From a virus (Duplodnaviria; Caudoviricetes): DNA of 57,364 bases. Below are positions 32,495-55,385 of the stretch, piece by piece. The first letter of the stretch is position 1; each line of letters begins with the position of its first letter. Location: IMG/VR virus record IMGVR_UViG_3300025382_000007, positions 1-57,364 of that record; one strand, 5' to 3'. The translations under genes were made by a program, and so were the position numbers. Below the pieces are notes generated by a model. It had not been told where the DNA came from and did no database searches. It saw only the letters and a program-made list of their open reading frames with translations.

Positions 32495-32534
32495 CGGTTC
32501 CCTTTCCCCATGGTCATTGTTATTATTGTTTATT

Positions 32535-32542
32535 TATTTATA
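32535..32542 (-). promoter_or_regulatory. Late promoter for the fibre/gp13 operon
   Basis: TATAAATA in the intergenic gap. Confidence 0.75.
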
Positions 32543-32543
32543 T

Positions 32544-33239: not shown

Positions 33240-33243
33240 TTAA

Positions 33244-34539: not shown

Positions 34540-34540
34540 A

Positions 34541-36121: not shown

Positions 36122-36163
36122 ATTATTTCTCCATAAAGTTTATATTGGTTATTAACCAATAAT

Positions 36164-36193
36164 ATTATAATATACTTTTTAAAAAAAGTAAAC
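36164..36193 (-). promoter_or_regulatory. Sigma70/early-type promoter inside the island
   Basis: GTTTACT-17 nt-TATAAT on the minus strand, upstream of the DUF2061 gene. Confidence 0.7.
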
Positions 36194-36200
36194 ACAATAA

Positions 36201-38687: not shown

Positions 38688-38688
38688 T

Positions 38689-39426
38689 TTAACCCTTCTG
38701 AGGAACTTTAGATAGTTTTAATATATTTCTACACGAACCTATTTCACCTTCAACAAAAGTATCAAAAGCAACACTTTGTCTTTTTACATTAGTTTCATTT
38801 GGTGGAACTTTATGTTTTAAATATGATGGAAATAATAATAATTTTCCATTTTTTGGTTCAAAATATTCTACATTTGATGTATATTTTGAAGGATGTGATG
38901 GATTTAAATATATTAATGTACTATCATTCATTTTAGTAATAGTAAAAGGTGAAGCATTTTCTGGATTATCAAAGAAAAATACTCCAGATATGATCGAATT
39001 TACATGATTATGTTCTGGATGAGAGACACCTGGTAATAATCCTGTGCACCAAGACATAGTAATATATAATCTAAATCGATTATTTTTTTCTCCAATAACG
39101 TTTTTTGTATAAAAATCTATATGATCTTGTAAATGTTTTTTTAATTCAGAAAATTCTGGATATTCTAAAATATATCTTTCTTTAAATTCTACAAATTCTG
39201 TATGTTCTGAAATAAACTGTTCTTCAGAACCTTTATAATCTTTATTCTCTAATATATATCTATCATAATAATTTTTATTATAATATTCCATAGTTTTATC
39301 AAGTGTATTTTCATCAATTTTTTTTCTAAGATTAGGTAAAGCATTTAATAAAATATCTTCATCTAAATCTGATTCATAAACCGGAGAAGGAAAAATAGGA
39401 ATTATTCTATACTTTGACATAATCAA
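38689..39426 (-). CDS. 2OG-Fe(II) oxygenase (HxH type, TIGR02466-like)
   Basis: IFPSPV, SW, HNH.NS.ISGV, LLLFPSYLKH.V, R.S.AF. Confidence 0.85.
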   Translation of the reverse strand: MIMSKYRIIPIFPSPVYESDLDEDILLNALPNLRKKIDENTLDKTMEYYNKNYYDRYILENKDYKGSEEQFISEHTEFVEFKERYILEYPEFSELKKHLQDHIDFYTKNVIGEKNNRFRLYITMSWCTGLLPGVSHPEHNHVNSIISGVFFFDNPENASPFTITKMNDSTLIYLNPSHPSKYTSNVEYFEPKNGKLLLFPSYLKHKVPPNETNVKRQSVAFDTFVEGEIGSCRNILKLSKVPQKG

Positions 39427-40219
39427 TGATCGCTTTTCTTGTTAAATGACTATTATTTTCCCACATAGAAAAATGAGTACTATTTGGTATTACTTTTTCT
39501 ATATAGTTTGGAAATAAGTTTTTAAATAAACTATAACCACCGGTGGTGATTTCATAATCATATTCACCAATAATACTTAGTATCTCTCTATTTCTGGAAG
39601 GTTTAAAGCCAAAATTATTATGATATGTTGTATAGTTATTAATATCAAATACAACTTGTCCTGGCGCCGTCCATTCATGTCCTACTACATCTATTATAGA
39701 TTTTTCCCATCCACATATTCTATTTGGTCTTGGTATTAATTTATCACTATATTTTTCAAGTCTTTCTTTTTTTAATATTTCTATATTTGATTTAAATATT
39801 AAATCATATTGAGTTAAAAAGTGTGGTTCAATACGAATACAAGGACTGTGTATAATAGTTTTGTTGAAATAACCATATTCACCAGCAATAAGAGCTGGTG
39901 CTGTAGATGAAGAAAAACCAAAAATTACTTTATTAGTATAATCTTCTAATTGATCTGTGATATAATTAATTTGATTAGCATATTCAATACGATCATAAGA
40001 AGCAAACTCTTGACTGTTACCAAATCCTTTAGGATCAAATAGAATAATATCTATACCTGCTTCAAGAAAATAATCAGCATGAGTTCTTCTATTTGGTAAT
40101 CTAAAATCCCAAAATGCTCTAGGAGTTAATGATTGGCCCGGTAAAAAGAATAATAATGAACTACCACCACACTTATAGTGTTTATAATAAGTTCCATTTA
40201 TATGTTTTTCAATATCCAT
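39407..40219 (-). CDS. Alpha/beta hydrolase
   Basis: LPG, D..GFG.S, GFSSS nucleophile elbow, GEYD, STHF. Confidence 0.8.
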   Translation of the reverse strand: MDIEKHINGTYYKHYKCGGSSLLFFLPGQSLTPRAFWDFRLPNRRTHADYFLEAGIDIILFDPKGFGNSQEFASYDRIEYANQINYITDQLEDYTNKVIFGFSSSTAPALIAGEYGYFNKTIIHSPCIRIEPHFLTQYDLIFKSNIEILKKERLEKYSDKLIPRPNRICGWEKSIIDVVGHEWTAPGQVVFDINNYTTYHNNFGFKPSRNREILSIIGEYDYEITTGGYSLFKNLFPNYIEKVIPNSTHFSMWENNSHLTRKAIIDYVKV

Positions 40220-41007
40220 TGTAATACTTCATTCTCTTCATATATTGTATCATTAAACTGTGTTACTTTGATAATCTTACCAGCTGTAGATGTTAGAAAC
40301 ATAGCATCTGCGCTTTCAATTATATATTTTGGAATGTTTATTCTATGGAAAGCATATTTATTTTTACATAGGTTTTCAACATTCATCATTGTTACGCCAT
40401 TTAAACAATTTTGTATAGGTGTATAGATATTATTACCAAGTATTATACCAATATTAAAACCAGGTCCTTCAGTAACATATCCTTTTTCATCTAATAATAT
40501 TGACGTATCATAGCCTAAATCTATAGCTTCCCATTGCGCTAAGTTTAAATCATTCCAAGCAAAATTTTTCATTGATTGATTAAATGATGTATTTCTTCTT
40601 TGTTTGGCAAGTAGAACTGTAGCTTCATTTGACTCATTAAATCCATAGTAAGGTTTGACATAAGCATAAAACCTATTGGTACAACTTTGTAAATCTCTAG
40701 GATTACCTGAACTAGGAATACCACGAGTAACACAAATCCATAATAATAGATCTTTTGTTGGTGATATATTAACCAGTTGATTTAATATTTCTATCAACTT
40801 TTCTTTATATGGTGGATTTAATCTCCAAGATTTACAACTATTTTCAAATCTATTTAGATGTAAATTTAAATCTTCTATATTACCATCTTTAACACTTAAT
40901 ACATCATATGTTGCATCAGAATGAATAAATCCAAAATCAAGAATTGAAATATTTAAATCTTCCAATTTACAGTATATTCCATTATTATACGCAGGATAAT
41001 TGAACAT
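40198..41007 (-). CDS. Fold-type IV PLP aminotransferase, (R)-amine transaminase-like
   Basis: DFGFIHSDATYDV, HLNRF, KNFAWNDL, TEGPGFN, TSTAG. Confidence 0.88.
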   Translation of the reverse strand: MFNYPAYNNGIYCKLEDLNISILDFGFIHSDATYDVLSVKDGNIEDLNLHLNRFENSCKSWRLNPPYKEKLIEILNQLVNISPTKDLLLWICVTRGIPSSGNPRDLQSCTNRFYAYVKPYYGFNESNEATVLLAKQRRNTSFNQSMKNFAWNDLNLAQWEAIDLGYDTSILLDEKGYVTEGPGFNIGIILGNNIYTPIQNCLNGVTMMNVENLCKNKYAFHRINIPKYIIESADAMFLTSTAGKIIKVTQFNDTIYEENEVLQWILKNI

Positions 41008-41016
41008 AATAACCCT

Positions 41017-41802
41017 TTACCAATAGAGATAATATTTGTTATCTTTCTTTACACAATGACCTTGTATTGTTATTCTATACTTATCTTGATTATATATAGA
41101 CTTTCCACTTCTATGAAGCATTCTATCCAATTGTAATACTAAATCACCAGGTTCATAATTAATAGTTTTATATTGACCTAAGTTACAATTGTTACATATT
41201 CCTTCAATTGCATGATCTTTGCAATGTGGAGGAGTATTATTTTGATTATATTTTGTTGATGTGTTTTCATAATAATCAAAAGTGAAATCACCTTTACTTA
41301 ACATAATTGTTATTGTTGAGTATTCATCAAAATAAGTTAAATCTATATAGTCTGGGAATTCTTTATTATATGGATAAAGTTTCTTCTCATCATCATAATG
41401 CCAACTTTTAGACAATGTTTCTGTTAATATTGGAAATCCTGGTTTTGAAAAATTATGCATATAAAAACAATTCATATCCAATTTTTCTTTAAACTTTTGT
41501 AACAATAAATCAAATACCCATTTATCTTCTATTGCCTCTATTTCTTTTTTTCTTTTATAATAGTTTTCATGTGCTTTATTAATAATATTTTGATCAACAT
41601 ATTTTACTTTACCAGCAGATGGAATAAAATTTGATGCTAATAAATTTCTATATAGACTATTACCTAAAATATAAGCGCCTTTATGTTCTTTTAAAGTTAA
41701 TGGCGTTGGATAATATGTCCAATGATCTTTTTTAAAGATAATTGATTCTACAATTTTTTGACATTCTTCTTTTGTGAAGAAATTATTAATAACTTTAATC
41801 AA
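41017..41802 (-). CDS. 2OG-Fe(II) oxygenase-like protein
   Basis: I.NFFT..EC, WHYD, Y..G......LHR, RIT.QGH. Confidence 0.75.
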   Translation of the reverse strand: MIKVINNFFTKEECQKIVESIIFKKDHWTYYPTPLTLKEHKGAYILGNSLYRNLLASNFIPSAGKVKYVDQNIINKAHENYYKRKKEIEAIEDKWVFDLLLQKFKEKLDMNCFYMHNFSKPGFPILTETLSKSWHYDDEKKLYPYNKEFPDYIDLTYFDEYSTITIMLSKGDFTFDYYENTSTKYNQNNTPPHCKDHAIEGICNNCNLGQYKTINYEPGDLVLQLDRMLHRSGKSIYNQDKYRITIQGHCVKKDNKYYLYW

Positions 41803-42046
41803 ATTTCACCTTTTTTAATAATGGATCATCTGGGTGTAAGTCTTTAAGATGTTTAATATACCAAACCATTTTCTCAATAACATAAAAACCAATTAATTGT
41901 GGTATAAAAGCATGAATAAGCATAAGAATAGACCATATTAATAAAAGAAAAGAAAGATGTATAGCCCAAAAGAAATGAGTAAAATATATTGGGCCAGATA
42001 TTCTGGAATATTTCTTTGCTTTTTCTAAATGATTTAAGTCAAACAT
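41795..42046 (-). CDS. Small membrane protein (DUF6356-like)
   Basis: HL...Y..HF..A.....LIHAFIP pattern with a hydrophobic core. Confidence 0.6.
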   Translation of the reverse strand: MFDLNHLEKAKKYSRISGPIYFTHFFWAIHLSFLLLIWSILMLIHAFIPQLIGFYVIEKMVWYIKHLKDLHPDDPLLKKVKFD

Positions 42047-42648
42047 AGGAATGTTACAAATCCGTATCTAGCATTAAGTATATCAACTTTAAAACCAATA
42101 TCAGTTAAAACTTTTAAATACCATTCAGTAGTTTTAGTATATATAACATTCTCTAACATCTTTTCTTTTTCAAATATATATTCATATGATACACCCTTTT
42201 TATGTTTAAATTGATAATATAAATTCTTAGTTGGTTCCATTTGTGTTGTTTTATCAGTTAATATTAAAGTACCATTAGTATTTAATTGATCATAAATAGA
42301 CTTTAAATAACTTTCTTTTTCTTTGATAAAATGTAAAGTCCAGTTCATTAAAACCAGATCGCATTTCATATTTGGAAATACATTGGTATAGAATACATTT
42401 GCAGGATATAAAGACTTATCCAACATATCTTTACTAGACTCAACTCCATATACTTGGTCATATCCTGCTTGGATAAAAGTATTCATAGTATAACCTAAAG
42501 CACTACCAACATCTATAATTGTTATATCTTTTTTATACATTTCATTAGCGTAATTTAAACATATACTAACTACTCTTGCATAATCTGGTATATTTGTTTC
42601 AGCTTCATGTTGGAATCTTTCAGCTATTAATTGATTAAATTGCCACAT
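42034..42648 (-). CDS. CmoA-like SAM-dependent protein
   Basis: WQF..A..F....IP.Y, DVGSALG, NWTLHF, FK...G.S...I..K..MLENV align with CmoA as recalled. Confidence 0.75.
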   Translation of the reverse strand: MWQFNQLIAERFQHEAETNIPDYARVVSICLNYANEMYKKDITIIDVGSALGYTMNTFIQAGYDQVYGVESSKDMLDKSLYPANVFYTNVFPNMKCDLVLMNWTLHFIKEKESYLKSIYDQLNTNGTLILTDKTTQMEPTKNLYYQFKHKKGVSYEYIFEKEKMLENVIYTKTTEWYLKVLTDIGFKVDILNARYGFVTFLCLT

Positions 42649-43352
42649 ATAGATTCCTCAAGTGTTATTATTTTTTCATTTGTTTTAATATATCTGCAAA
42701 TAAATCGATTATTAATACTAGATGTGTTATAAGCATCATGGCTTTCTATAATCTTTTCTGGATATATTCTTTCATCAACTTTAAACCCATAAATGGACAT
42801 AATTAAATCTATAGCATGTTTATTTGGTAATGTTTCTATTCCAAAATGATCTAAATAATTTTCTCCACCATTATTTTTAACCATTCTACCTTGGTGAAAA
42901 GAAATTTGTGGATTATTACCAAAGTTTGGATCGTGTGTTTCTATAATAACATATTCATTTGACAATTCACATATATTTTTTAATATACCAAATAAATCAA
43001 AAGTTCCATGAATATATCCACACGCTAAAACAATATCATGTTTTTCTGATATATCTTTTATTGTTTCAAATAATTGAAAGTTTGTATGATATTTTGCTAA
43101 TAGTTTTTTTGATTTATCTCTATAAGATTTTTGAATCTCAACACCAGTGTAAAACTTACTATTACCATATAGAGCATAATGACCCATAGCACCAAGAGCT
43201 GAACCTAAATCCAATACTGTTTTTTCTTGTATAAATGTAAAAGGTATGATTGCAGAACATCTTTTTGATAAAGATTCTATAGTAATTTTTAATCTATCTC
43301 TATTTTTTCTAGGATCTAATTCTATAAATTCTGGATAATCATTGAAGAACAT
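42627..43352 (-). CDS. Class I SAM-dependent methyltransferase (CmoB-like)
   Basis: KTVLDLGSALG, GVE, IIET motifs; adjacent to the CmoA-like gene. Confidence 0.7.
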   Translation of the reverse strand: MFFNDYPEFIELDPRKNRDRLKITIESLSKRCSAIIPFTFIQEKTVLDLGSALGAMGHYALYGNSKFYTGVEIQKSYRDKSKKLLAKYHTNFQLFETIKDISEKHDIVLACGYIHGTFDLFGILKNICELSNEYVIIETHDPNFGNNPQISFHQGRMVKNNGGENYLDHFGIETLPNKHAIDLIMSIYGFKVDERIYPEKIIESHDAYNTSSINNRFICRYIKTNEKIITLEESICGNLIN

Positions 43353-44011
43353 TAGACCCTCTGTACAAAAAAATATTGATTAAGACGTTTATTCATTTTT
43401 TTAGTCATAGGATCACCATGTAAAGTTTTTCCTTTCCATGATGCCATTCTATTATATACATTTTTTATTTCACATGTTAATTCAAAATTATTATGATAAT
43501 TAGTATGTATTTTTGTATATTCTTCTAAATTAATCTTTCCTGCGTAATATTCTTCTTTTGGTTTAGTATAAAAATTAACTGTTTTGTCTAATAATTCTTT
43601 TTCAGACCAGTTAACTTCTGGTTTCAATGAACATATTTTAATTCCTGCATTTGGATCAGGATTTGGTGTTAGAAATATTTGACCACATAATACTAACTTA
43701 TATTCTTCCATAGACATTAAACAAGTATCTGGATTCTTACCATCAATATGCACCCATCTTTCATTGAATATTTCTATTGGATCATATTCATGTTCCATGA
43801 AAAAAGTAGATAAACATAGTCCAAATGGATTTAAACCATGAGTTCTATAAATCTTTTGACAGAATTGATTATGTAATGATCTATCAATTTGTTGTAAATC
43901 TATACTTCTACGGCCACTACCACAACCTACAATAGGATAATCACCATTTATTTTATCTATGATTATCTCAGGGTTTTCATAAAAATTATCTATAATTGAT
44001 ATATCATTCAT
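43352..44011 (-). CDS. 2OG-Fe(II) oxygenase-like protein (DUF6445-like)
   Basis: IIDNFYENP, G.RS, VHID, N.YNR, LHG, RLNQ.FF. Confidence 0.75.
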   Translation of the reverse strand: MNDISIIDNFYENPEIIIDKINGDYPIVGCGSGRRSIDLQQIDRSLHNQFCQKIYRTHGLNPFGLCLSTFFMEHEYDPIEIFNERWVHIDGKNPDTCLMSMEEYKLVLCGQIFLTPNPDPNAGIKICSLKPEVNWSEKELLDKTVNFYTKPKEEYYAGKINLEEYTKIHTNYHNNFELTCEIKNVYNRMASWKGKTLHGDPMTKKMNKRLNQYFFVQRV

Positions 44012-44012
44012 T

Positions 44013-44675
44013 TTATTGTCTTGGATATATATAAAAATTATGAGTTAATTTAATAACTTGTTTTTTAGATATCATTTTTTGACCTCTTATTGATCCAGAA
44101 TTCCAAGATATCATTCTATTTTTTTTATTAGGTATTGAAATATCTAATTTAAACTTGTTATGAAATATATTAAATTTTTGTTTAAACTTATCTAATGTTA
44201 GTTGACCATTTTCATATTGATCTCTTGTAACAATATAATCATATAAAAGAAGTTTAAATAATTCATTTTTATCTATATCATATGATGGCATCCAAAAATC
44301 TGTATTTAGATTATCTACAATATCACATAGTATTATCATTCCGCCTAAAGTAATCTTTTGATGATAATTTTCCGGTGTCATTGATGTATCACCGTATCTT
44401 ATATCACCATCTATATGTGGCCAGTTATAATTTAGAATGTCTTCATCAAATGCTGTTATTTGATTAAAGTATGTTGTAAGTCCATATTTTCCATTATCTA
44501 CTATATTATGTAAATCAAATATTTTTTTACGAAAAGCTTTATAGAATGACATATCTATAATATCAATATGATGACTTCTCATTCCAGGACATGGAGAAGG
44601 TTGATCACAAATGGCCATGTTAATTATGGATTGCACATCATCATAAAAGTCATCAATAATATATATTTTATTCAT
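44013..44675 (-). CDS. 2OG-Fe(II) oxygenase-like paralog lacking the distal His
   Basis: IIDDFY, PG.RS, PHID, N..NR; IRG where the paralog has LHG. Confidence 0.65.
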   Translation of the reverse strand: MNKIYIIDDFYDDVQSIINMAICDQPSPCPGMRSHHIDIIDMSFYKAFRKKIFDLHNIVDNGKYGLTTYFNQITAFDEDILNYNWPHIDGDIRYGDTSMTPENYHQKITLGGMIILCDIVDNLNTDFWMPSYDIDKNELFKLLLYDYIVTRDQYENGQLTLDKFKQKFNIFHNKFKLDISIPNKKNRMISWNSGSIRGQKMISKKQVIKLTHNFYIYPRQ

Positions 44676-45265
44676 AGATAATTAAAGTTAATGATGCATC
44701 GTAAATCAGTCTTAGGTTTTCCAACTGAATGATATATATCACCATCAAATATAATTGCTCTACCTTTTTTTGGTGAAACAGTATGTGCTATATCTAATTT
44801 ACCATCTATTATATCTTGTGGTGTAGCATTATTTAATGTTTGTTTAAACAAAACAGTATCTCCATCTACGTCATTAACATAATATACCACTACATAATAT
44901 TTTTCTTTTCTTCTACCATCAACATGAGGTATACCATAAACTTTATCTTTTTCTGTTAAAAGTGGTAATTGCAATTGTATTCTTGCATTTAATACTGCAT
45001 TAATTTTAATATTAATTTTATTTTGAATACCATCTAATATTTTAGAATAAAGAAAATAATCATCACTTGGTTCCATTGTATCTAAATTTATTAATTCTTT
45101 TGTAAATGACATTAGAGATTTTCTTTGTACATCTGTAACTTCAGCATGTGTATCATAGAAAACAGAACGTGCAAATGTCCATTTAGTATCTTTACCAAAT
45201 ATTGTTTTTTCAATTTCATCTTGTAATTCTTTATTAATCACATCATCAATAATAACTAAACTCAT
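44672..45265 (-). CDS. 2OG-Fe(II) oxygenase (paralog of 4459-5040)
   Basis: PHVD, YYVND.DGDT, SPKKGR, YHS, RCIINF. Confidence 0.85.
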   Translation of the reverse strand: MSLVIIDDVINKELQDEIEKTIFGKDTKWTFARSVFYDTHAEVTDVQRKSLMSFTKELINLDTMEPSDDYFLYSKILDGIQNKINIKINAVLNARIQLQLPLLTEKDKVYGIPHVDGRRKEKYYVVVYYVNDVDGDTVLFKQTLNNATPQDIIDGKLDIAHTVSPKKGRAIIFDGDIYHSVGKPKTDLRCIINFNYL

Positions 45266-45993
45266 TAAAGAACTTTCTTTAATCTAAATACAACAGCATA
45301 TCGAATTTCTGGACTCCAAGCAGCAACAGGTTTTGTTGTATGAAGAGTTCGTCCATCATATAATATAATTCTACCAGGTTTTGGACTAACTGTTAAAAAT
45401 GGATTACCGACACCAAAACCTCGGCACTGACCATATCCTTTTTGGTATTGCTGTTTATCTTCTGAATCTTCATCATCTTCATAGAAAATATTTTCACCAA
45501 ACCAAGTAGGATACCATTCTGGATTTGCTATGTATAATAAAGTATAATTTCTTGTTTCTTTTAGATTAATAGTATCTCTATGAATTCCATGAGATCTTTT
45601 GATAGTTTCTTCTGGTTGTGCATTTACATATACTCTAGCATAGTTAAAGTTATTATCAGCTATACCTTCTGGATCTCCACCTATAATAAAACTATCATTA
45701 AAATGTTTATTGATATGTTCCCAAAGATTTAAGATTATTGGATGATTATTTAAATCGCTTTGACCTTTAGAGAAAACACATCGATGCATATATTGATTAT
45801 TTACTGAAGGGATCGATTGATCTAAATATTCTTTTTTGTTTTCTTTTGGAACATAATTTATAACAGTTCCTACATCTGGATAAGAAACATCTTTTCTAGT
45901 CGCATGAAAAGACTGAGAAAGTATATATTCCCATACATCTTTTTGTAAATGTTGATCTATAACATTATCAACAACATCGACATCATATATCAT
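45265..45993 (-). CDS. 2OG-Fe(II) oxygenase (prolyl-hydroxylase-like)
   Basis: IHRD, LYIANP.W...W.GE, PKPGR, LH, R. Confidence 0.85.
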   Translation of the reverse strand: MIYDVDVVDNVIDQHLQKDVWEYILSQSFHATRKDVSYPDVGTVINYVPKENKKEYLDQSIPSVNNQYMHRCVFSKGQSDLNNHPIILNLWEHINKHFNDSFIIGGDPEGIADNNFNYARVYVNAQPEETIKRSHGIHRDTINLKETRNYTLLYIANPEWYPTWFGENIFYEDDEDSEDKQQYQKGYGQCRGFGVGNPFLTVSPKPGRIILYDGRTLHTTKPVAAWSPEIRYAVVFRLKKVL

Positions 45994-46007
45994 AATATAA
46001 CCTTATA

Positions 46008-46955
46008 CTAAGCTCCTATTAGAGCATTCACTAATCCTGGAGTAAAATAATCTTTATACATACGATAAACGTGTGAAGTTACTTGTTTAAACTTTTCTTT
46101 TTCTTCTTCTCTCATATGAATTACTTCAACATTATTTTCTTCACATTGTTTTAGAATGTTTGGAATATCTTCAACAGAAAGTTTACGTTCTTTTTTAGCA
46201 GCATTATAAGCTGCTTGAGCAAAAATACCACGCATATCTCTATCATGTGATTTAAAGAAATCTTTATTCATAATAATTGAAGTCAGAAATAAGCTATGTT
46301 CAGTATCATTAACATACTTAAATGATTTATACTGATTAAGTGGAAACACACGAACATATGTTGATTCACCAGCTTCAATCTCGCCACGGTCAGCATATTC
46401 ATTCATTGTCTCTAATGGAATATGTTCTTTTGGTTTAGCACCTAATAATTTAAATACATCAACAGCAATAGGTGACCGAGAGGTACGAACAGTACGTCCA
46501 TGCCATGAATCAATAGTATTTGCTCTAAAATTAGCAGGAACAATACGATAACCACCAGAATAAGTATATGACATTGGTTGAATGTTTGATTTAGTTGCAA
46601 CACCACTTAAAAGGGCGCATCCAATACCACCTTCAAGAACACGATCGGCATGAGCATGATCGCGGAATAAGAATGGAAGGTCAAGAGCATGAAGATTGCG
46701 ATTATAGTCGGCTAACCAAGTGGTATAGATATGTGACATTTCAATGGTACCATTATTAATAAGGTCCATTAAGTCATATTTAGTAATTGTTTTTCCACCA
46801 TGATATTTTTTAGAAAAATCAGTCAATGAAAGAACTTCAATTTCAAACATGTTATTAGTTTTTTCATTAACTTCATTAGCAAAGTTCTGAGCCACCGCTA
46901 CGAAATAATCGATCGGTTCGTGAGCGATTACCCATTTAACGTGTCTTTTTTCCAT
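46008..46955 (-). CDS. TRAP transporter substrate-binding protein (DctP-like), no signal peptide
   Basis: LDLPFLFRD..HA..VL.G.IG, GYR, G..VR, F..LGA, T.H; N-terminus starts at the mature domain. Confidence 0.85.
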   Translation of the reverse strand: MEKRHVKWVIAHEPIDYFVAVAQNFANEVNEKTNNMFEIEVLSLTDFSKKYHGGKTITKYDLMDLINNGTIEMSHIYTTWLADYNRNLHALDLPFLFRDHAHADRVLEGGIGCALLSGVATKSNIQPMSYTYSGGYRIVPANFRANTIDSWHGRTVRTSRSPIAVDVFKLLGAKPKEHIPLETMNEYADRGEIEAGESTYVRVFPLNQYKSFKYVNDTEHSLFLTSIIMNKDFFKSHDRDMRGIFAQAAYNAAKKERKLSVEDIPNILKQCEENNVEVIHMREEEKEKFKQVTSHVYRMYKDYFTPGLVNALIGA

Positions 46956-46984
46956 AGTTTTTTTCCTTTTGACTATATAGTGAT

Positions 46985-46992
46985 TATTTATA
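46985..46992 (-). promoter_or_regulatory. Late promoter upstream of the DctP-like/oxygenase operon
   Basis: TATAAATA in the intergenic gap. Confidence 0.75.
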
Positions 46993-46996
46993 TAGT

Positions 46997-47707
46997 TTAT
47001 TTTCCCATCATTTGTTCTTTTTTGGTAACACCATTAGCGCCAAAGGCATTAAGTTCTTCTTCATTTTCTTTTAAAGTTTGAAGAAAGTCATCATAGCTTC
47101 TATGTATGGCTGATACGATACAAACTCTATCACCATAATCTGTTGTCTTCATATTTCCAGGTTCAACAAAATGTAGAAGATAACCAGGATGGATGACCAT
47201 TATTCCTTCTTCAACTGGTATTCTTTTATATGGACTAAACTGATTAACCCAATTAACACCACCTCTTGGATCCATTATTACCAGATTTCCAGATTCATTC
47301 TTTTTAGCATTTACATAATATACGCCAACACCATATGTCGTACAATGTTTATGCGGTGAAATTTTATATTCAAAATTTGGTTTTGTTATTCTAAAATAAC
47401 CTTTACCAGCTCTAATCTTAGGTAATGGTTGTTCTGAATGTGGCCTAAAATATTTATCAGTAAGCTCTACTATTTTTTCTTTTACTTCTAACATAGTATC
47501 TGGTAGTGTTATTCCTTTAGAAGTCCATTCTTCTGATAAATTCCATAGGTCATTATGATTATACATACCAGGACCATTCATAATCGGAATAATATCTTTT
47601 TTAAGTTGTTCTAAGAATGTATTTGAAAATGGTCTTGCTATAATTACTGGTGTTGACCATAGTTCATGACAGATTTCATTTCCTTCTAGTTCAAGATATG
47701 TTGACAT
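46997..47707 (-). CDS. 2OG-Fe(II) oxygenase (HxH type)
   Basis: LWSTPV, HKH, GVYYV, DPR, PGYLLHFV.P, R. Confidence 0.82.
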   Translation of the reverse strand: MSTYLELEGNEICHELWSTPVIIARPFSNTFLEQLKKDIIPIMNGPGMYNHNDLWNLSEEWTSKGITLPDTMLEVKEKIVELTDKYFRPHSEQPLPKIRAGKGYFRITKPNFEYKISPHKHCTTYGVGVYYVNAKKNESGNLVIMDPRGGVNWVNQFSPYKRIPVEEGIMVIHPGYLLHFVEPGNMKTTDYGDRVCIVSAIHRSYDDFLQTLKENEEELNAFGANGVTKKEQMMGK

Positions 47708-47714
47708 TTTATCT

Positions 47715-47804
47715 TCACATTTTTTCTATAATAGCCATTTTTTGACCTCGTGGGTGATTCCAATTTTCTATTGATACTAATTTCCATGGCATTCCTACTA
47801 ACAT
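47715..47804 (-). pseudogene. 29-codon ORF, possible C-terminal remnant of a methyltransferase
   Basis: MLVGMPWKLVSIENWNHPRGQKMAIIEKM; WNHPRxQKM resembles the ends of class I MTases as recalled. Confidence 0.35.
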
Positions 47805-47807
47805 ATT

Positions 47808-49076
47808 TTATATACCGTATTGTTCTGGATCCGGTCTTCTTATTTTACCATGTACATTTGTTAGTATTAAACCAGTCAAATGGAATAATGCTGCACCAAG
47901 AATTCCTATATTATAATAGTATTCATTATTGCAAGAATGATACCATTCTTTTCCTTCTAAAAACATACATGATCCAGCACAAAGTTGAAGAACAGGACAC
48001 TCTGAACATTCATCTCTATGGGACCAATGCTTGGAAGTATTTAATTTGATATTATCAAAGTCTTGTATATTTCCAATTCTATGACGACCAAGAGCTCCTG
48101 TATTCTGACAAGTCATAACATTACCAAGTAGATCAACAGCAATATTATCTTCTCTGTCCATACCACATTTCTGCCCAACAAATTCAGAAGGTGTTTTATT
48201 GTATAATGACTGTATGAAATTATCTATTTTATTTGCAAAGCATGGCAGTAATTTTAATTTTGGTTGTATTGCGGCTTTAAAAACACTAAGTGTTAATTGC
48301 TCATAGTGTTCTTCAGTAAAATAGTTATTTTCTCCACCTTCATAATTAACAACAATACCTTCTAAGTTCACAATCACATTATCATCTATATTTGTTTTAA
48401 AGAATTCTACTATTTTTTCTATATCAAAATTATCAGGAGTTAGAACGGAATTAAAAACCAGTTTAGATTTTCTTTTATTGTATAATTTTTTAATCATTTC
48501 AAATTGATTTGAATTCTGAAATGGATCTGGACCTCTGACATGTTGTCCAGGACCATCATGAGATATTGCCACATTAACATCATATTTTTCTACATACTCA
48601 ATAAATTCATCATCAATCAAACTACCATTTGTTATAATTAGAAACTTTGTTTTTGGAAATTTCTCTGATAGTTTTTCAAGAAGAAACTTGATTTTATTCC
48701 AGTATAATAGTGGTTCTCCTCCCCAAAATTCAATATATTCTGGTTCTGATTTTAACCAACTGTCTAATTTAGATAAGAAAATTTCGGCATCTCTAATATT
48801 AGTCTTAGATCCAAATTTAACTTCTTCTTTTTGATTACAATACGAACATGAATAATTACAACCCATGCCTAATTGTATTTTTAAAGTCTTAATATTATGA
48901 CTTTTTATTCCAGGATTTTCTGGTGAAATTTTATTAATAATAGATAAATTTGTTTTTTCAGCATATTGACTTATAATATCATTACCATCTGCATCAATGA
49001 TAGTTGATGTATGTGGATCATAGAAAAAATAAACAGGATTTGCAAGAGCGTTTTCCACCAACTCAAGTTTAAACAT
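47808..49076 (-). CDS. Radical SAM/SPASM protein (copy 1), candidate peptide/protein maturase
   Basis: CNYSCSYC, WGGEPLL, SHDG; SPASM CG..GNVMTC...CSECPVLQLCAGSC...C. Confidence 0.95.
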   Translation of the reverse strand: MFKLELVENALANPVYFFYDPHTSTIIDADGNDIISQYAEKTNLSIINKISPENPGIKSHNIKTLKIQLGMGCNYSCSYCNQKEEVKFGSKTNIRDAEIFLSKLDSWLKSEPEYIEFWGGEPLLYWNKIKFLLEKLSEKFPKTKFLIITNGSLIDDEFIEYVEKYDVNVAISHDGPGQHVRGPDPFQNSNQFEMIKKLYNKRKSKLVFNSVLTPDNFDIEKIVEFFKTNIDDNVIVNLEGIVVNYEGGENNYFTEEHYEQLTLSVFKAAIQPKLKLLPCFANKIDNFIQSLYNKTPSEFVGQKCGMDREDNIAVDLLGNVMTCQNTGALGRHRIGNIQDFDNIKLNTSKHWSHRDECSECPVLQLCAGSCMFLEGKEWYHSCNNEYYYNIGILGAALFHLTGLILTNVHGKIRRPDPEQYGI

Positions 49077-49083
49077 ATTAACC

Positions 49084-49971
49084 TCACGCAGTTTTAGTTA
49101 TTTGAAACACCTCTGAAATGTAAAACCAATGTGCTCCAATTCTTATATTTACAGTATCACCAATATTCATTGTAGAAGGATCAAAAGAAAAAGAACCAGA
49201 ATTGTTAACTATTTTACATGAATTATCTATTTTGCCTTTATCAGTATCTGCATATAATTTACTATAATCGCCATAACACCATGGTTTTTGATCTAAATTT
49301 TGAAATTCAACATTAAATGTAATATTAATTGGAGCATTACCTGTAATCTCAGTTGGACCTGTATATGTTAATTTAAATGGTCTTGGTATAGTAGTAGGAT
49401 GCATATTTGGAGATCTAATTTCTTCTAAAGATCTCATTGGAAAATAACCATTTAATAAATCAAAATTTGCAGATATAAAATCTTGATTTTTTAATAATCT
49501 TATGTTTGAATGTATTTGACATAATATATATGTTCTAAGTGATAATATTTTTTCTTCTTTTGATAAAAATAATAAACCAAATTTATGTTTATCTCTAAAG
49601 AACATACCTTCTGGTTTATTCATATCAGCAATAGTTGTTGGTTTAAATCCATCTTTATAATATATTTTTAATTCATTTTGTAATGGAGTAGTAGTAATAG
49701 GTATTTGTTCTTTAGCAAATTTTTCTCTATGAAAACCATGAAGTCTCCATATACCAATACCATTTTGACAATCATTTGAATTTAATAAATCAGAAAAATT
49801 AATATTATATTCTAAATGATTGTCTACTTTAACTGTTGAATCTTGATTAGTAAGATCTGTATGTACTATTAATGAAAGATTGTCATCATCAATCTGATTG
49901 ACAATTATTTGTTGAGAAGGTAAATAAGTACCAGTATTTACCCAGTAGTTATATAATGTGATAGGTGTCAT
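49084..49971 (-). CDS. Hypothetical protein with a beta-rich (Ig-like?) C-terminus
   Basis: 295 aa; lies between the Cys peptide and rSAM genes, with GAGG RBS. Confidence 0.6.
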   Translation of the reverse strand: MTPITLYNYWVNTGTYLPSQQIIVNQIDDDNLSLIVHTDLTNQDSTVKVDNHLEYNINFSDLLNSNDCQNGIGIWRLHGFHREKFAKEQIPITTTPLQNELKIYYKDGFKPTTIADMNKPEGMFFRDKHKFGLLFLSKEEKILSLRTYILCQIHSNIRLLKNQDFISANFDLLNGYFPMRSLEEIRSPNMHPTTIPRPFKLTYTGPTEITGNAPINITFNVEFQNLDQKPWCYGDYSKLYADTDKGKIDNSCKIVNNSGSFSFDPSTMNIGDTVNIRIGAHWFYISEVFQITKTA

Positions 49972-49978
49972 TTAAACC

Positions 49979-50164
49979 TCAACAATTGCATCTGCAGTTA
50001 CAGTCGTTATTTATTCCAACAACCACTGCTGATCCACTTTGGTATACTGTCTGCACTCTTTGGCCATTTGCTAGAGTCTGAGAACCATCACCATAATAAT
50101 AAACTGAAACAGATTGTAGTGCAAGCGCACTAACAACGTTCGTACTTCCAATATAATAAGCCAT
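49979..50164 (-). CDS. 61-aa peptide with C-terminal CxCxCxC; candidate rSAM substrate
   Basis: Ends GINNDCNCRCNC; strong SD AAGGAGA and its own late promoter. Confidence 0.8.
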   Translation of the reverse strand: MAYYIGSTNVVSALALQSVSVYYYGDGSQTLANGQRVQTVYQSGSAVVVGINNDCNCRCNC

Positions 50165-50183
50165 TCTAGAATCTCCTTTACTC

Positions 50184-50191
50184 TATTTATA
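50184..50191 (-). promoter_or_regulatory. Late promoter for the Cys-peptide/rSAM operon
   Basis: TATAAATA overlapping the fibre stop codon, ~20 nt upstream of the peptide ATG. Confidence 0.8.
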
Positions 50192-52499
50192 TTAGAGCCT
50201 CTAATTTATTTATCTTTTCTTCTAGTTCATCTATTTTAGCCATCTGTGCCTTTACAGCTTCTACTAGAACTGGAATTAGTTTTTCTTCTTTTACCGATAA
50301 GTATGGATTCTCAGGATCATAATCTATACCATCTTTTGGCACACCTCTATCTTTAAACTGTAGTTCATTTATCGCCACACCTTGAGGTAAGACGTCTTTA
50401 ACTTCTTGGGCGATTAATCCTATCTCTATAGTATCAGCATCTCTAGACATGATCTTTTTACCAGTCTCATTCCACTGAAATCTGTAGCCGTTGATGTTTT
50501 CTAGAATTGTTCTCCAGTCAGATATCTTCTCAATATTCTTTTTCATCCTTCTATCTGACCACTGAGATATAATATCTCCACTGGCATAGAAGTTACCAGA
50601 ATATGCCATCAACCATCTAGCAACGTCGTCGTGCGTCCTGAATTCGTGAACGTATTGCGCAGTAGTTCCACCCTCATATATAGTTCTATCACCAGAAGCA
50701 AAATAAAATCTATTCCATCCATCAGAAGAAGGATTCCAATTACCAACGTTGATATTTACTATTGCGAATCTAGATGTTGAATTAGGATCACAATAATAAC
50801 CAGTGTCATTAGAATCATAGTATATCGGTGATCTTGTCTGACCAGCAAACCATGCTCCAGTGCCATTGATATGAGCACGACACGTACTGCTGCCGTAGTC
50901 TTCAAATCCCCAAGCACCAGCCCTAACTCTTACTTGATGGTTGTTGTCCCAATAACCACCTGACATAGTGGCTCCAGCAGGATTAATACCAACTGTTGGT
51001 TGGGCCATATAAGTTGCCCAATTAGAATCACTATCAGACCAGTGCCAAATACCATTTACACGACCATCATTAGCACCATTGCCCATAACAATTCTATAAT
51101 TCATTTGCAGTTTATAGATATTTGATGTACTATCTGGATTTACATAATAACCAGTATTATTTGTATCATAAAATATTGGAGCTCTAACATCGGTATCAGA
51201 TTGTATTAAATTAGAAGCCCAAAATTGTTTACTATTATAGACTCTTACCCAGGTGGAGTCATTCATATAGATTCCACCACCATATGTTTCATTATACCAA
51301 CCACTGGAATTATATGATCTAAACCAGTTTGTCGCGCTCACTGAACCAGTTTCATTATTAAGACCACTAGCCGCTGATATAAAACCAGTAGCAACTAGAC
51401 CATTAATATTTGATGTCGAATTGGGATCGACATAATAAGAAGTATCATTATAGTCATAAAACGATGGAGCTTGAACTTGGTTGTTATGATAAGTTACACC
51501 ATTAGAATCTATCCACATTTTTGCAGAGTTAGCAATATCAAATTCAATTCCATAACCAGATGGAACAGAATATGCAAGTGTAGCATAACCAGTTGCAGTA
51601 CCTCTACCAATCCAGAATTGTGTGGAGGTTCCACCGGAAGTTTGTATTGGAATATTAAAAAGAAGTGGACCTGTTAAAGTACCACCGGCAAGAGGAAGAT
51701 ATGTTGAACTTGCTGTTGATGATAAAAGATAAGAACCTGCTGATTGACCATTAATATATGTAGCACTATTTGCTGTCATTGTAGCTACATTAGCAGCAAG
51801 AGTAGAATTTAATTGATAAGCTGAAGCAGGTGTTCCACCAAGATTAGGTGAATTGTTTGCTGTTGAATTAGAAATATATGTTGTTAAATAAGAACTATTA
51901 ACAAATAAACCATCAGCTGTAGCTGTTAAACCAGTATTAGCTTTAACAAATAATCCTAATGTATTTGCTATTAAACCAAATTGCGCATTAACATATACAC
52001 CACCAGGACCAACTGTTATACCACTATTACCAATGACAGATACGCCAGAACTGGTAACTAAAATACCATTATTTCCTACTACGAAAGTACCAGATGAATT
52101 TGAATAAAGACCATTATTTGCTGTTGTATACGCAGCTAAGTTTGCTGTTACAGCATTTGCAGAACTAATTGTGTTTGAAGTAGTAGAAGAAAGACTTGCA
52201 ATATTTGCTGCTAATTGAGCGTATGTTGGTACTCCAAGAGATGATGGAGTGATTATTGACCATTGACCATTTGAATTTAGCCAATATGTTCCAAGTGACT
52301 GTTGCGCAGTATTTGGACAAGTAATTGAAATATAATTTTGAGGATTTGAAATACTTAATGAAGTTGTATTAATAGATACGTTTAAATTATATACTTCATC
52401 AGCTACAGCTACGTTAGCTACTGTGTTAAAAGAACCTTGATTACCATAGACATAAGTAGACAAAACACCATTGGATACGAATGTGAAATTATCTGACAT
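50187..52499 (-). CDS. Tail fibre with S74 chaperone
   Basis: Three P.(F/Y)YD.N.T.YY..P.STS repeats; SDRRMKKN..GLIAQE..LVEAVK. Confidence 0.88.
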   Translation of the reverse strand: MSDNFTFVSNGVLSTYVYGNQGSFNTVANVAVADEVYNLNVSINTTSLSISNPQNYISITCPNTAQQSLGTYWLNSNGQWSIITPSSLGVPTYAQLAANIASLSSTTSNTISSANAVTANLAAYTTANNGLYSNSSGTFVVGNNGILVTSSGVSVIGNSGITVGPGGVYVNAQFGLIANTLGLFVKANTGLTATADGLFVNSSYLTTYISNSTANNSPNLGGTPASAYQLNSTLAANVATMTANSATYINGQSAGSYLLSSTASSTYLPLAGGTLTGPLLFNIPIQTSGGTSTQFWIGRGTATGYATLAYSVPSGYGIEFDIANSAKMWIDSNGVTYHNNQVQAPSFYDYNDTSYYVDPNSTSNINGLVATGFISAASGLNNETGSVSATNWFRSYNSSGWYNETYGGGIYMNDSTWVRVYNSKQFWASNLIQSDTDVRAPIFYDTNNTGYYVNPDSTSNIYKLQMNYRIVMGNGANDGRVNGIWHWSDSDSNWATYMAQPTVGINPAGATMSGGYWDNNHQVRVRAGAWGFEDYGSSTCRAHINGTGAWFAGQTRSPIYYDSNDTGYYCDPNSTSRFAIVNINVGNWNPSSDGWNRFYFASGDRTIYEGGTTAQYVHEFRTHDDVARWLMAYSGNFYASGDIISQWSDRRMKKNIEKISDWRTILENINGYRFQWNETGKKIMSRDADTIEIGLIAQEVKDVLPQGVAINELQFKDRGVPKDGIDYDPENPYLSVKEEKLIPVLVEAVKAQMAKIDELEEKINKLEALI

Positions 52500-53149: not shown

Positions 53150-53383
53150 CTATTTCTGAAATACAATATTATATATATCTTTTACTATCTGATCTTCTGC
53201 TGATATGTCAGAATTTGCAAATAATTTTTCTGTTTTATGAGTAGTTACAGGTAAATCTTGATCATCAGGATCATCTAATATGATTTCATAATCAATCCAT
53301 AGAGTTGCTGGTTCTTGGACGGGTACATTTGTTGCTTCCGTATATCTCAACGCCTTTAAATTCATTTTTTTAGTTATTGCCAT
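53150..53383 (-). CDS. Small fibre-associated hypothetical protein
   Basis: MAITKK...DDPDD.DLP...DISAEDQIV.DI; follows a fibre gene. Confidence 0.6.
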   Translation of the reverse strand: MAITKKMNLKALRYTEATNVPVQEPATLWIDYEIILDDPDDQDLPVTTHKTEKLFANSDISAEDQIVKDIYNIVFQK

Positions 53384-55385
53384 TTTTGTTCTCCAATTGC
53401 TCAATTCTTTTCATTAAATCTTCAATTATATTATGTTGTTCCTTTATTGCTTCGACAAACAATCCAGCCATGTTTCCATAGTTAGCACCATATTGATCGT
53501 TTTCTTCATCATAGGTAATAACTTCTGGTAGAATTGGTAGTACCTCTTGTGCAATAACACCCAATTCTCTTTTTCCTTGAAACTTTTCTACAGTATTTTT
53601 AATCTTGTTATAAAACACACCTCTCATTTGTAACACTCTATTTAGGGCGTTATCAATAGTCACTACATTTTCTTTAATTCTGGCGTCTGATGCGGAATAG
53701 ATATCGGAAGTAGCATATAAATTTCCACTCACATAAACGTTATAAGATGCAGATGTTGTTGAGGTGTTTAGTCCCATATATCCTTTGTTATATAAAGAAT
53801 ATATTATCCAGTGACCGTTTGAAGAATCATATAGACCAAAATCTGTACCTGAGCGACCCATAAAATGAAATGTTCCAGGAATAGCCCAACCTTGCCAAGA
53901 GTTTAAACCAGTTCCATATGTGGACATATTACCATAAACAGCATTGTTGCCAGGATCCCAAATTCCTCTGCCGGTTGCCTGGTTATATAGACCAGCACCT
54001 TGTATGTTATTTCTAAACCAACTATTGTTATATATTTCTGTAAATGTTGGACCGTTAGCGGTACCCAAACTCTGGTTGATGGTATATGCTGTGATATTAG
54101 TAGACGTACCAACAATATTCATTGTTTGGCCGCTAAGGAATGCCGCTATGGCTGCGGCGCTTGCTGAACGATAGTAGTTATCACCTGCTTTTGACATTAC
54201 TGCCGTTACACCACTGGTTATAGAGTTATCAGTAGAGTTAAAATAGTTATTAAATATATAACCGTTAGCATCGGCAAGAACAACACGATTTGCAGTAGCC
54301 GCTACAGCAGAAGGTGTATATCCACCAACAGAACCAGCAGAACCTGTAATAGAACCAGTAATAGTTCCTGCTACAGTTAAACCATTAAGGTTTGACGTTG
54401 ATGACGGATCAACATAGTAACCGGTATTATCTGAATCATAGAATATTGGTGCTCTAAATGAAGTAGTACTATAAGTAATACCACTGGTGTCCATGTACAT
54501 TTTAGCAGTAGTTCCACCTGGCATAAAATTTAATACTTTACTACTACCATTATAACCGTAATACATACTTCCTTGATTAGTACTAATAACCATATTAGAA
54601 CCATCATTACGAATCCAAGCACCAGAAGCAGCATCACCAGTGCCAAATGTAATTGGACCGGGCGTAACAACATTACCAGTAAACGTCGCACCGCTTAATA
54701 GAGCATAAGAACTTAAACCAGAAGATGTAATATATCCAGAAGGATTGGTGCTATTATATGGTGTATAACCTAATGCAGTAGTTACTTGAGAAGATGTAAT
54801 ACCTGTTAAATAAGATGCTGCAGCCACGCCACCAAGATAAGAAGCATTATTGGCAGAAAGAGTTGCGATATAAGCAGTGTTGACTGTGACCGTACCAGAC
54901 GTGTTGACCAACCCAGTACTGATAGTATATTGAGGTATGGTCGACCAATAAACATTACTACCGGCAGACGAAGTTAATACCTGTCCAGATGTTCCGGCAG
55001 AACCGTTGGCGATGATAGCGCCATTGACAGACACGTTAGCCGTATGAGATAAAACACCGGATAGCGTAAAAGCGCCAGAAGTGTTAACATAAGAAGCTGC
55101 AGCAACACCACCAAGGTACAGCGAATTGTTGGCAGTTATGTTTGGTTGTGAGGTTGTCTGTAGCGTTCCATATATACCAGAACTGTTAGCTATGGTTGTT
55201 GAGCCGACGCTGAACGATGCGGCGTTCATCAGACCAGTATGATACAGTCCAGTCGTATTAGCTAACCAAGAAGTGCTAAGAGAAACAGCAGAAGAGTTTA
55301 CTGTAGAATTACCAACGGTTAATACGTTGGCGCTAAGAGAACTAGATACTTTAAGTGTAGTAAACCCTGATACTGATTTTACCAT
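53370..55385 (-). CDS. Tail fibre with S74 chaperone
   Basis: ALGYTPY, APIFYDSDNTGYYVDP, SDARIKEN..GVIAQE..EAIKE. Confidence 0.88.
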   Translation of the reverse strand: MVKSVSGFTTLKVSSSLSANVLTVGNSTVNSSAVSLSTSWLANTTGLYHTGLMNAASFSVGSTTIANSSGIYGTLQTTSQPNITANNSLYLGGVAAASYVNTSGAFTLSGVLSHTANVSVNGAIIANGSAGTSGQVLTSSAGSNVYWSTIPQYTISTGLVNTSGTVTVNTAYIATLSANNASYLGGVAAASYLTGITSSQVTTALGYTPYNSTNPSGYITSSGLSSYALLSGATFTGNVVTPGPITFGTGDAASGAWIRNDGSNMVISTNQGSMYYGYNGSSKVLNFMPGGTTAKMYMDTSGITYSTTSFRAPIFYDSDNTGYYVDPSSTSNLNGLTVAGTITGSITGSAGSVGGYTPSAVAATANRVVLADANGYIFNNYFNSTDNSITSGVTAVMSKAGDNYYRSASAAAIAAFLSGQTMNIVGTSTNITAYTINQSLGTANGPTFTEIYNNSWFRNNIQGAGLYNQATGRGIWDPGNNAVYGNMSTYGTGLNSWQGWAIPGTFHFMGRSGTDFGLYDSSNGHWIIYSLYNKGYMGLNTSTTSASYNVYVSGNLYATSDIYSASDARIKENVVTIDNALNRVLQMRGVFYNKIKNTVEKFQGKRELGVIAQEVLPILPEVITYDEENDQYGANYGNMAGLFVEAIKEQHNIIEDLMKRIEQLENKNGNN

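Follow-up and report, generated by a model that had tools for sequence, protein, structure and literature searches.

The closest described counterparts of the system reported here are the sactipeptide and ranthipeptide maturases, such as CteB, PapB and the SCIFF maturase, which combine a radical S-adenosylmethionine (rSAM) core with a seven-Cys SPASM domain (CX9-15GX4C ... CX2CX5CX3C ... C) and have a Cys-rich substrate encoded alongside. In the products of PapB and NxxcB, Cys is joined to Asp or Asn. A similar arrangement is seen in the window analysed here, a 57,364-nucleotide (nt) stretch of viral DNA (IMG/VR record IMGVR_UViG_3300025382_000007), in which the gene of an rSAM/SPASM enzyme lies close to that of a 61-amino-acid (aa) protein whose C-terminus is a cysteine ladder, Cys alternating with other residues. 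The DNA, 57 kb long, is a fragment of a T4-like myovirus, with strong PHROG matches to the major head protein, portal, sheath and large terminase, and the cassette sits inside the fibre module of this phage. We consider it probable that the window holds one copy of a widespread phage/prophage cassette that matures the C-terminal tips of tail fibres or of small fibre-like proteins. The locus reads as follows:

50187-52499, minus strand: tail fibre of 770 aa with a C-terminal Peptidase_S74 intramolecular chaperone (Pfam, 4.3e-15); context gene
50184-50191, minus strand: TATAAATA, the T4-type late-promoter consensus, overlapping the TAA stop of the 770-aa fibre gene
50173-50177, minus strand: Shine-Dalgarno sequence AGGAG, as read from the sequence, 8 nt before the ATG (50164) of the 61-aa open reading frame (ORF)
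49979-50164, minus strand: 61-aa fibre-like protein, the putative substrate, ending in ...GINNDCNCRCNC
49982-50002, minus strand: stretch of the 61-aa ORF that codes for CNCRCNC
49084-49971, minus strand: 295-aa partner protein, starting 7 nt past the stop of the 61-aa ORF
47808-49076, minus strand: rSAM/SPASM enzyme of 422 aa, starting 7 nt past the stop of the 295-aa gene

The original prediction for this DNA had named the fibre, the promoter motif, the Shine-Dalgarno sequence, the 61-aa and 295-aa ORFs and the rSAM gene, and all of them were found at the positions that it gave, although these were plus-strand positions and the genes are on the minus strand, which carries every window gene of at least 150 aa. 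Unlike the CteB, PapB and SCIFF systems, the cassette has an rSAM without a detected RiPP (ribosomally synthesised and post-translationally modified peptide) recognition element (RRE), and its putative substrates across loci include full-length tail fibres rather than leader-core peptides. It is further set apart by the absence of a protease or exporter in Pfam scans of the neighbouring ORFs, by a new partner family with an immunoglobulin (Ig) domain and, in some forms, by coupling to Hint domains. Another related case is anSME, the anaerobic sulfatase-maturating enzyme, also a SPASM enzyme with a Cys target in a folded-protein substrate rather than in a leader peptide and with a similar fold (template modelling score, TM, 0.59). 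The window rSAM differs from it in reaching 54.4 bits against a cut-off of 349.45 with the anSME model TIGR03942 and in being paired with ladders that lack the anSME target C-x-P/A-x-R; Pfam scans covering 20 ORFs around both window rSAMs turned up no sulfatase gene. On the structural side, the tip of T4 gp37 carries HxH iron sites, and the Cys ladder is like this HxH ladder in that a motif of alternate residues is repeated at the C-terminal, distal tip of a fibre predicted to be trimeric. It also resembles chaperone-assisted tips, such as those of the window fibres with their S74 chaperones, in having dedicated putative tip-maturation genes. Unlike the gp37 and S74 tips, it has Cys instead of His and a radical enzyme instead of a folding chaperone.

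The strongest evidence for the reading proposed above is the co-occurrence of enzyme and ladder. Screening 592 viral and 211 genomic stretches revealed relatives of the window rSAM in 553 and 203 of them, respectively, and loci were fetched for the best 80 of the 553 viral-contig relatives and the best 80 of the 203 genome relatives. In all, 163 rSAM loci were compared; 152 are distinct, and 127 have at least 2.5 kb of upstream sequence (L001 and L002 excluded). With a ladder tail defined as a run of three or more alternating Cys that lies at most 12 aa before the stop of a same-strand ORF within 4 kb upstream, 97 of the 127 distinct loci carry a ladder-tailed ORF before the homologous rSAM. 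In nine further loci the ladder has 161-214 aa behind it and leads directly into a self-cleaving-type Hint domain, and degenerate tails such as NCACVPADCANCGACE were observed in another three. Ladder tails end 107 of the 2820 same-strand ORFs upstream of the rSAM, compared with 21 of the remaining 14496 ORFs in these loci, and in several loci the ladder gene lies less than 100 nt from the rSAM gene with nothing between. A run holds from 3 to 12 Cys, and the intervening residue X is mostly Asn (122 positions), Ala (44) or Asp (42), every other residue being found at most 7 times. A count with a looser motif (135 of 150 loci) was dropped, having taken in junk GC-rich ORFs, and the strict figure is used here.

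In the reverse test, a DNA pattern encoding NCNCNCNC was scanned on viral contigs and 120 stretches were returned. The match is the C-terminal tail of an ORF in 71 of the 120, and 54 of these 71 have an rSAM in the fetched locus, a count not fully independent of the forward one in that some contigs are common to both sets. Of the 17 ladder tails without an rSAM, 16 have less than 3.5 kb of downstream sequence, and a single one has the room and no rSAM. Among the 49 matches that are not tails, mostly simple repeats, an rSAM was found with one only, a Hint-type protein. These forward and reverse counts across loci show a Cys ladder paired with the enzyme far beyond chance, and the association is near-obligate in both directions for this enzyme clade. 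The co-occurrence of rSAM homologues with ORFs ending in (CN/Cx)n had been set beforehand as a check on the idea of a RiPP-like system, and that idea gained support from both directions, on a stronger case and in a broader form than first proposed: the system would be an rSAM/SPASM system of RiPP type whose substrates are phage fibre tips and not a secreted antibiotic.

In a FastTree phylogeny of 123 enzymes (a quick method, with several long branches flagged), the distribution of ladder and no ladder needs only three changes, and the ladder-associated enzymes appear to be phylogenetically coherent. Ladder tails of other types (...NCNCNCNCSNCDCGDDGG, ...NCNCNCNCTRGIL) were seen at L173, L225, L237, L246, L264 and L280 near distant rSAMs that are 24-29% identical to that of the window. 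The pairing may reach beyond this enzyme clade at such loci.

The enzyme itself belongs to the radical SAM superfamily, matching Pfam PF04055 at 7.2e-15 with 56 bits against a cut-off of 29.5, and its CX3CX2C motif (C73/C77/C80) is invariant in the 25 homologues aligned (43-64% identity). The SPASM pattern is complete, with C304-x13-G318-x4-C323, C357-x2-C360-x5-C366-x3-C370 and C382, all invariant in the same 25 homologues, and alignments of the enzyme to CteB, anSME and TigE run through this region. The complete rSAM/SPASM enzyme that had been proposed, with CX3CX2C and all seven SPASM Cys, was thus found; it is predicted to hold three [4Fe-4S] clusters. The AlphaFold2 (AF2) model of the enzyme has a mean confidence score (pLDDT) of 89.4 and its closest solved folds are the sactisynthase CteB (E 1e-12), TigE, anSME, ChlB, SuiB and SkfB, while a PDB profile search returned TigE, anSME (1e-16) and CteB at the top. 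In PHROG, the enzyme falls in phrog_1802, a family described as 'radical SAM domain-containing protein'. The best NCBIfam model is that of the ranthipeptide maturase PapB (8e-26, 91 bits against a cut-off of 340), and the CcpM and SCIFF maturase models score 74.7 against 500 and 59.8 against 425, respectively. Because the named maturase models score so far below their cut-offs, the chemistry cannot be transferred by homology. Taken on these similarities, the enzyme belongs to the peptide/protein-modifying SPASM class, its nearest characterised relatives acting on cysteine, and falls in no named maturase family. The original prediction had listed clustering with anSME-type enzymes as an outcome that would refute it; no such clustering was found.

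To see what kind of protein carries the ladder, the ladder-tailed ORFs were compared with domain and family collections. Many are 300-700 aa long, and among the ten long ones scanned, nine have tail-fibre PHROG matches, seven have collagen repeats and two have Hint-type matches. The seven with collagen include six with sub-threshold CBM_5_12 matches and two with a Phage_T7_tail N-terminal domain. Two cultured phages give the same picture. In Ralstonia phage RSP15 (classed in Ackermannviridae), whose rSAM is 42% identical to that of the window, the gene order is tail protein, side tail fibre, two unnamed genes and rSAM, and the annotated side tail fibre (ORF048, 290 aa) ends in ...NTNCQCGN. A 'central tail fiber J' is among the proteins of Achromobacter phage JWF, whose rSAM is 38% identical (gp030, named anSME in one of its two records) and is preceded by the 483-aa gp028, where ...NCNCDCNCNCSC is fused straight to a Hint domain; the record notes similarity of gp028 to the T4 gp36 tail-fibre family (Pfam PF03903). 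In the Rhodobacteraceae genome locus L093, the order is collagen and S74 fibre, 300-aa partner, 2-oxoglutarate (2OG)-oxygenase-like gene, ladder protein of ~95 aa, second oxygenase-like gene and rSAM, with host polysaccharide genes beyond the rSAM. The cassette follows fibre genes in the window phage, RSP15, JWF and L093 alike.

The position of the ladder within these proteins also points to the fibre tip. In 12 ORFs the ladder enters a Hint/intein-like start (C-F-P-A-G-T...M-A-D-G), either directly or through a linker of 4-8 residues. Hint domains cleave at that first Cys, and cleavage at this boundary means that the mature protein would again end in the ladder. By analogy with the Hint family, from which the cleavage is deduced, the ladder is thus best regarded as a feature of the mature C-terminus, and the C-terminus is the distal tip in most phage fibres. 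The original prediction had placed the window product in the virion or at the fibre tip and had disfavoured a secreted antibiotic; this is supported by the comparison with these relatives, the same ladder ending full-length fibres elsewhere or preceding a Hint domain. Most of the putative substrates also have a second short Cys element, N-C-x-C...N-C-[YG], which lies ~25-30 aa before the terminal ladder and is itself followed by a Gly-rich turn (for example L024 5022-5309, L072 3736-4659 and L045 2798-4021). This suggests a conserved C-terminal hairpin domain of ~40 aa, in which the two Cys-bearing strands could pair.

The 61-aa protein of the window has only four Cys, residues 55, 57, 59 and 61, all within its C-terminal D-C-N-C-R-C-N-C, exactly as had been noticed at first sight, and a CxCxC run occurs in no other ORF product of at least 55 aa in the window. 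Its N-terminus, MAYYIGSTNVV, is a shortened form of a motif common to the small ladder proteins (55-104 aa), which share an N-terminal MA-[YF]-K-[VI]-G-S-T-T-V-[IV]-D-N...S-G-x-I-x-W-S-R-I in addition to the C-terminal ladder. A homologue with 46% identity lies at the same locus position in the related contig L006. In two other related contigs, Cys-less paralogues of the small ladder protein stand in tandem just before the ladder-bearing copy (L003 4416-4586 and 4594-4767; L008 1904-2068 and 2073-2300) and keep a MA-[FL]-K-[IV]-G-S-T N-terminus.

T4-type late transcription uses TATAAATA located ~10-40 nt upstream of a gene, where it serves the phage late sigma factor (gp55 in T4), and in the window this motif lies 19 nt before the ATG of the 61-aa ORF. 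The total number of copies in this AT-rich window is at chance (17 found, 14.8 expected), and all but one of the 17 are on the coding strand. Of these 16, nine precede an ORF start by 45 nt or less, where the background is 7%, and the starts concerned include those of the major head protein and of two fibre genes. By its match to the consensus, a late promoter ahead of the 61-aa ORF is plausible. A scan of the operon for sigma-70 promoters and terminators gave matches at chance level only.

The 295-aa protein had no match in Pfam, NCBIfam or PHROG, tblastn with it and a DNA similarity search in the phage collection returned nothing, and the ESM Atlas gave no usable lead (all feature scores below 0.8 and all TM below 0.4). 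Its AF2 model (mean pLDDT 69) is mostly β, in keeping with the β-rich protein of the original prediction, and ends in a confident Ig-like β-sandwich from about residue 200 to 295 (blocks mostly at pLDDT 85-96). Foldseek returned generic Ig-like matches for this model, the single one at E <= 0.001 being a filamin Ig domain (E 7e-4). An iterated hidden Markov model (HMM) search over the neighbours of the rSAMs recovered 110 partner-family proteins in 109 of the 163 loci, including ORF047 of RSP15; the same search detected none in JWF. Profile-profile comparison of the window partner subgroup with two others gave 96.9% (E 2e-10) and 73.9% (E 3e-5), over the C-terminal 85-112 columns only, and a single family over the whole 295 aa was accordingly rejected. 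The conserved unit of the partner family appears to be the Ig-like domain, with N-terminal halves that differ. A complex prediction for the partner with the 61-aa protein scored 0.06 against a mark of 0.32, which counts neither way.

Downstream of the enzyme there is one more gene of possible interest:

46997-47707, minus strand: 236-aa 2OG-Fe(II)-oxygenase-like protein, a possible accessory modifier, starting 100 nt downstream of the rSAM stop

This protein matches PHROG_81 at 1.3e-14 and Pfam 2OG-FeII_Oxy_5 at 22.9 bits, below the cut-off of 27. Oxygenase-like homologues, among which two His are invariant, lie inside the cassette in 91 of the 163 loci and often flank the ladder gene on both sides. 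In L003, L006 and L008, the loci most closely related to the window, no homologue was detected beside the rSAM, and the 236-aa protein was for that reason rejected as a firm member of the cassette. Because the window holds an array of such genes and these relatives show none by the rSAM, it is retained as a possible part only.

Taken together, the cassette would consist of a substrate with a (Cys-X)n tail (n = 3-12, X = Asn > Ala ≈ Asp), the rSAM/SPASM enzyme, the Ig-domain partner and often one or two oxygenase-like proteins. In the window the substrate would be the free-standing 61-aa protein, probably co-transcribed with structural genes from the T4-type late promoter. That the rSAM acts on the ladder is likely, given the pairing, and the 61-aa product is probably part of the virion, by analogy with the ladder-bearing fibres. 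In the mechanism that we propose, the enzyme would abstract a hydrogen and link the ladder Cys to neighbouring residues by thioethers of the sactionine or ranthionine type; the fibres being trimeric, such bonds may run between chains, and the outcome would be a covalently locked tip that resists proteases and heat. Thioether cross-linking as the chemistry is a tentative choice, preferred because the enzymes nearest to this one either form thioethers or oxidise Cys and because Asn and Asp, the dominant X residues of the ladder, are ranthionine partners; they are also the acceptors of PapB and NxxcB. The fullest form of this model is that phages of several tail types weld their trimeric fibre tips by RiPP-type rSAM chemistry, as a Cys thioether ladder that possibly runs between chains, with the Ig partner and Asn/Asp-directed oxygenases assisting and Hint self-removal exposing the ladder in some lineages. 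It is possible, and short of probable.

A number of observations weigh against the reading of a tip-maturing cassette or against its thioether chemistry. On the side of the enzyme, the Pfam SPASM model gave no match at E <= 0.01, no named NCBIfam maturase cut-off was reached, all scores being far below, and Pfam detected no RRE/PqqD-type leader-binding domain; the ~60 residues before the rSAM core are modelled by AF2 as a three-stranded β-sheet without the RRE helices. On the side of the substrate, the 61-aa protein has no recognisable fibre domain or family in Pfam, NCBIfam or PHROG. Ladder-like tails of any sort are absent from 18 of the 127 loci, so the rSAM family is not exclusive to ladders: ten of the 18 form one clade (support 99) in which an ATP-grasp-like gene is accompanied by one of ~780 aa, three form another (support 100) with halogenase-like genes of the flavin adenine dinucleotide (FAD) type and dioxygenase-like genes, and the others have truncated rSAMs or unclear contexts. 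The window also has a second rSAM with no ladder ORF or gene of the 295-aa family nearby, on a contig that is a fragment. As for the chemistry, Ala makes up 18% of the X positions and to our knowledge is not known as a ranthionine acceptor, and if the Cys of a trimeric ladder face inwards, they could bind metals with no enzyme involved. Finally, the hosts are probably freshwater aerobes, a setting in which rSAM enzymes are fragile; 22 freshwater metagenome runs contain the window DNA, apparently as DNA, and no RNA run with this sequence was listed.

The metal-binding possibility leads to the likeliest of the alternatives, in which the ladder serves the trimeric tip as a structural motif that binds metal, in the manner of the T4 gp37 HxH iron ladder, or forms disulfides, the rSAM carries out anSME-like formylglycine formation, epimerisation or another single-residue change, and the oxygenases hydroxylate Asn or Asp. 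Alternate residues of a β-strand face one side, so a trimeric CxCxC would be expected to stack Cys triads, and X is mostly Asn or Asp, the usual targets of β-hydroxylases, in a family of loci where 2OG-oxygenase-like genes are found in 91 of 163. The place of anSME among the closest folds and the closest solved sequences fits as well. The anSME model, however, gives 54 bits against 349, the ladders lack the target motif of anSME, and the near-obligate pairing argues that the Cys are the target of the enzyme, although chemistry other than cross-linking would still fit that pairing. We regard this alternative as unlikely. One could also imagine that rSAM and ladder merely travel together in a mobile fibre module and that the real substrate is the Ig partner, the S74 fibre, a host surface molecule or a small molecule. 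The second window rSAM without an adjoining ladder gene, the two rSAM clades in non-fibre contexts and the L093 cassette that abuts host polysaccharide genes would all fit. The pairing, however, holds across phage types while the other neighbours vary (of the 163 loci, 109 have the partner and 91 the oxygenase, and no partner was detected in JWF), and the ladder genes that directly adjoin the rSAM, with under 100 nt and no gene between them, likewise favour the ladder as the substrate, which makes mere co-travel quite improbable.

If the 61-aa product were instead processed into a secreted antibiotic or signal, a sacti- or ranthipeptide that the phage carries as a moron, this would explain why the ORF is small and precursor-like, is conserved at its N-terminus but variable and rich in Cys at its C-terminus, and adjoins an rSAM/SPASM system, as well as RiPP maturases as the best NCBIfam matches, and a cyanophage study labels an rSAM maturase an 'antibiotic synthesis gene' (PMC12801897). 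Most of the long substrates scanned, however, bear tail-fibre or collagen domains, Hint-fused forms exist, Pfam scans of the ORFs that neighbour it in the window brought up neither a leader peptidase nor an exporter, and the cassette lies within a fibre module behind a late-promoter consensus. A classical RiPP of this kind is very unlikely. That the 61-aa ORF is a chance open frame whose terminal CxCxCxC is a coincidence might be suspected of a short ORF without a family match in an AT-rich genome; the homologous small ladder proteins of related contigs, with the same N-terminal motif and the same position (46% identity in L006), its standing as the sole ladder among window ORFs of at least 55 aa, its Shine-Dalgarno sequence and its 7-nt coupling to the following gene leave this explanation next to no credit.

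A further related case comes from the literature. In its accessible portion, the study of Iyer et al. 2010 (PMC2938197) describes cyanophages with 2OG-dioxygenase genes in tandem arrays, predicts modification of collagen-like or tail-collar proteins and proposes secondary-metabolite roles for phage arrays. The window likewise has a 2OG-oxygenase-like array beside fibre genes, and such genes are embedded in the cassette elsewhere; that portion of the article, unlike the window cassette, links neither an rSAM nor a Cys ladder to fibres. The cyanophage rSAM maturase of PMC12801897 is listed there among genes whose reason for presence is given as unclear, and PMC7159879, as far as its accessible part goes, treats rSAM/SPASM peptide systems unrelated to the ladder cassette. 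No description of an rSAM-ladder pairing or of an rSAM-installed fibre-tip modification was found in the open full-text literature, and with subscription journals and supplements outside this search an earlier description is possible.

Tail-fibre tips set host range and must withstand harsh environments, and covalent stabilisation of virions is known for capsids, as in the chainmail of HK97. If the reading of a tip-maturing cassette is true, it would give a function to a large unnamed family of phage rSAMs (3025 proteins at E <= 1e-20 among 6009 candidates scored), the genes of which are currently annotated as anSME or as 'antibiotic synthesis', and would put a name to the new family of partners. 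SPASM enzymes would then gain a new class of substrate, the folded structural proteins that end in a (Cys-X)n ladder. The welding of trimeric tips, in the fullest form of the model, would establish a new class of post-translational modification, covalent and enzyme-installed, on the parts of virions that bind receptors. A C-terminal NCNCNC run would in that case also be a simple metagenome marker for a subset of receptor-binding proteins.

The loci without a ladder have contexts of their own. The clade with the ATP-grasp-like gene (L085, L086, L087, L089, L090, L091, L094, L100, L113 and L120) comes from Variovorax, Ramlibacter, Polaromonas and other proteobacterial assemblies, and its rSAM follows the ATP-grasp-like gene and a protein of ~770-830 aa ending in ...HPCT or ...HPFT; this may be a different bacterial peptide-modification system. 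In L052, L055 and L061, which are AT-rich viral contigs, several FAD-type genes of ~550-640 aa, halogenase-like by eye, stand before the rSAM, and paralogous proteins of ~200-220 aa that end in GPKFR, with no ladder, stand after it.

The second rSAM gene of the window lies some distance from the first:

33244-34539, minus strand: second rSAM/SPASM paralogue of 431 aa, 63% identical to the first copy

Both window copies and the rSAM of L006 form a three-row clade with 100% support, and five related contigs have one rSAM copy each. The substrate of the second enzyme could be the same 61-aa protein or the product of a gene past the contig ends. Its neighbours include a 98-aa ORF (34541-34837), a 231-aa ORF (32544-33239) and two genes of ~360 aa each (34834-35895 and 36832-37959), both with a SGGIDS motif that we take to be PP-loop-like and neither with a Pfam match. 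This group is upstream of a 918-aa S74-type fibre gene that has its own TATAAATA. An S74-type chaperone region ends three separate fibre genes of the window (29738-32494, 50187-52499 and 53370-55385), which suggests several fibre sets.

The GC content across the window is about 25-38%, and a low-GC island at ~32000-48000 (25-29% GC) has accessory genes. It contains several 2OG-Fe(II)-oxygenase-like ORFs (38689-39426, 44672-45265, 45265-45993 and the 236-aa gene at 46997-47707), two paralogues matching phrog_1644 (43352-44011 and 44013-44675), a class IV aminotransferase (40198-41007), a cupin (36201-36854), an α/β-hydrolase-like ORF and a DctP/TRAP solute-binding protein (46008-46955) preceded by TATAAATA.

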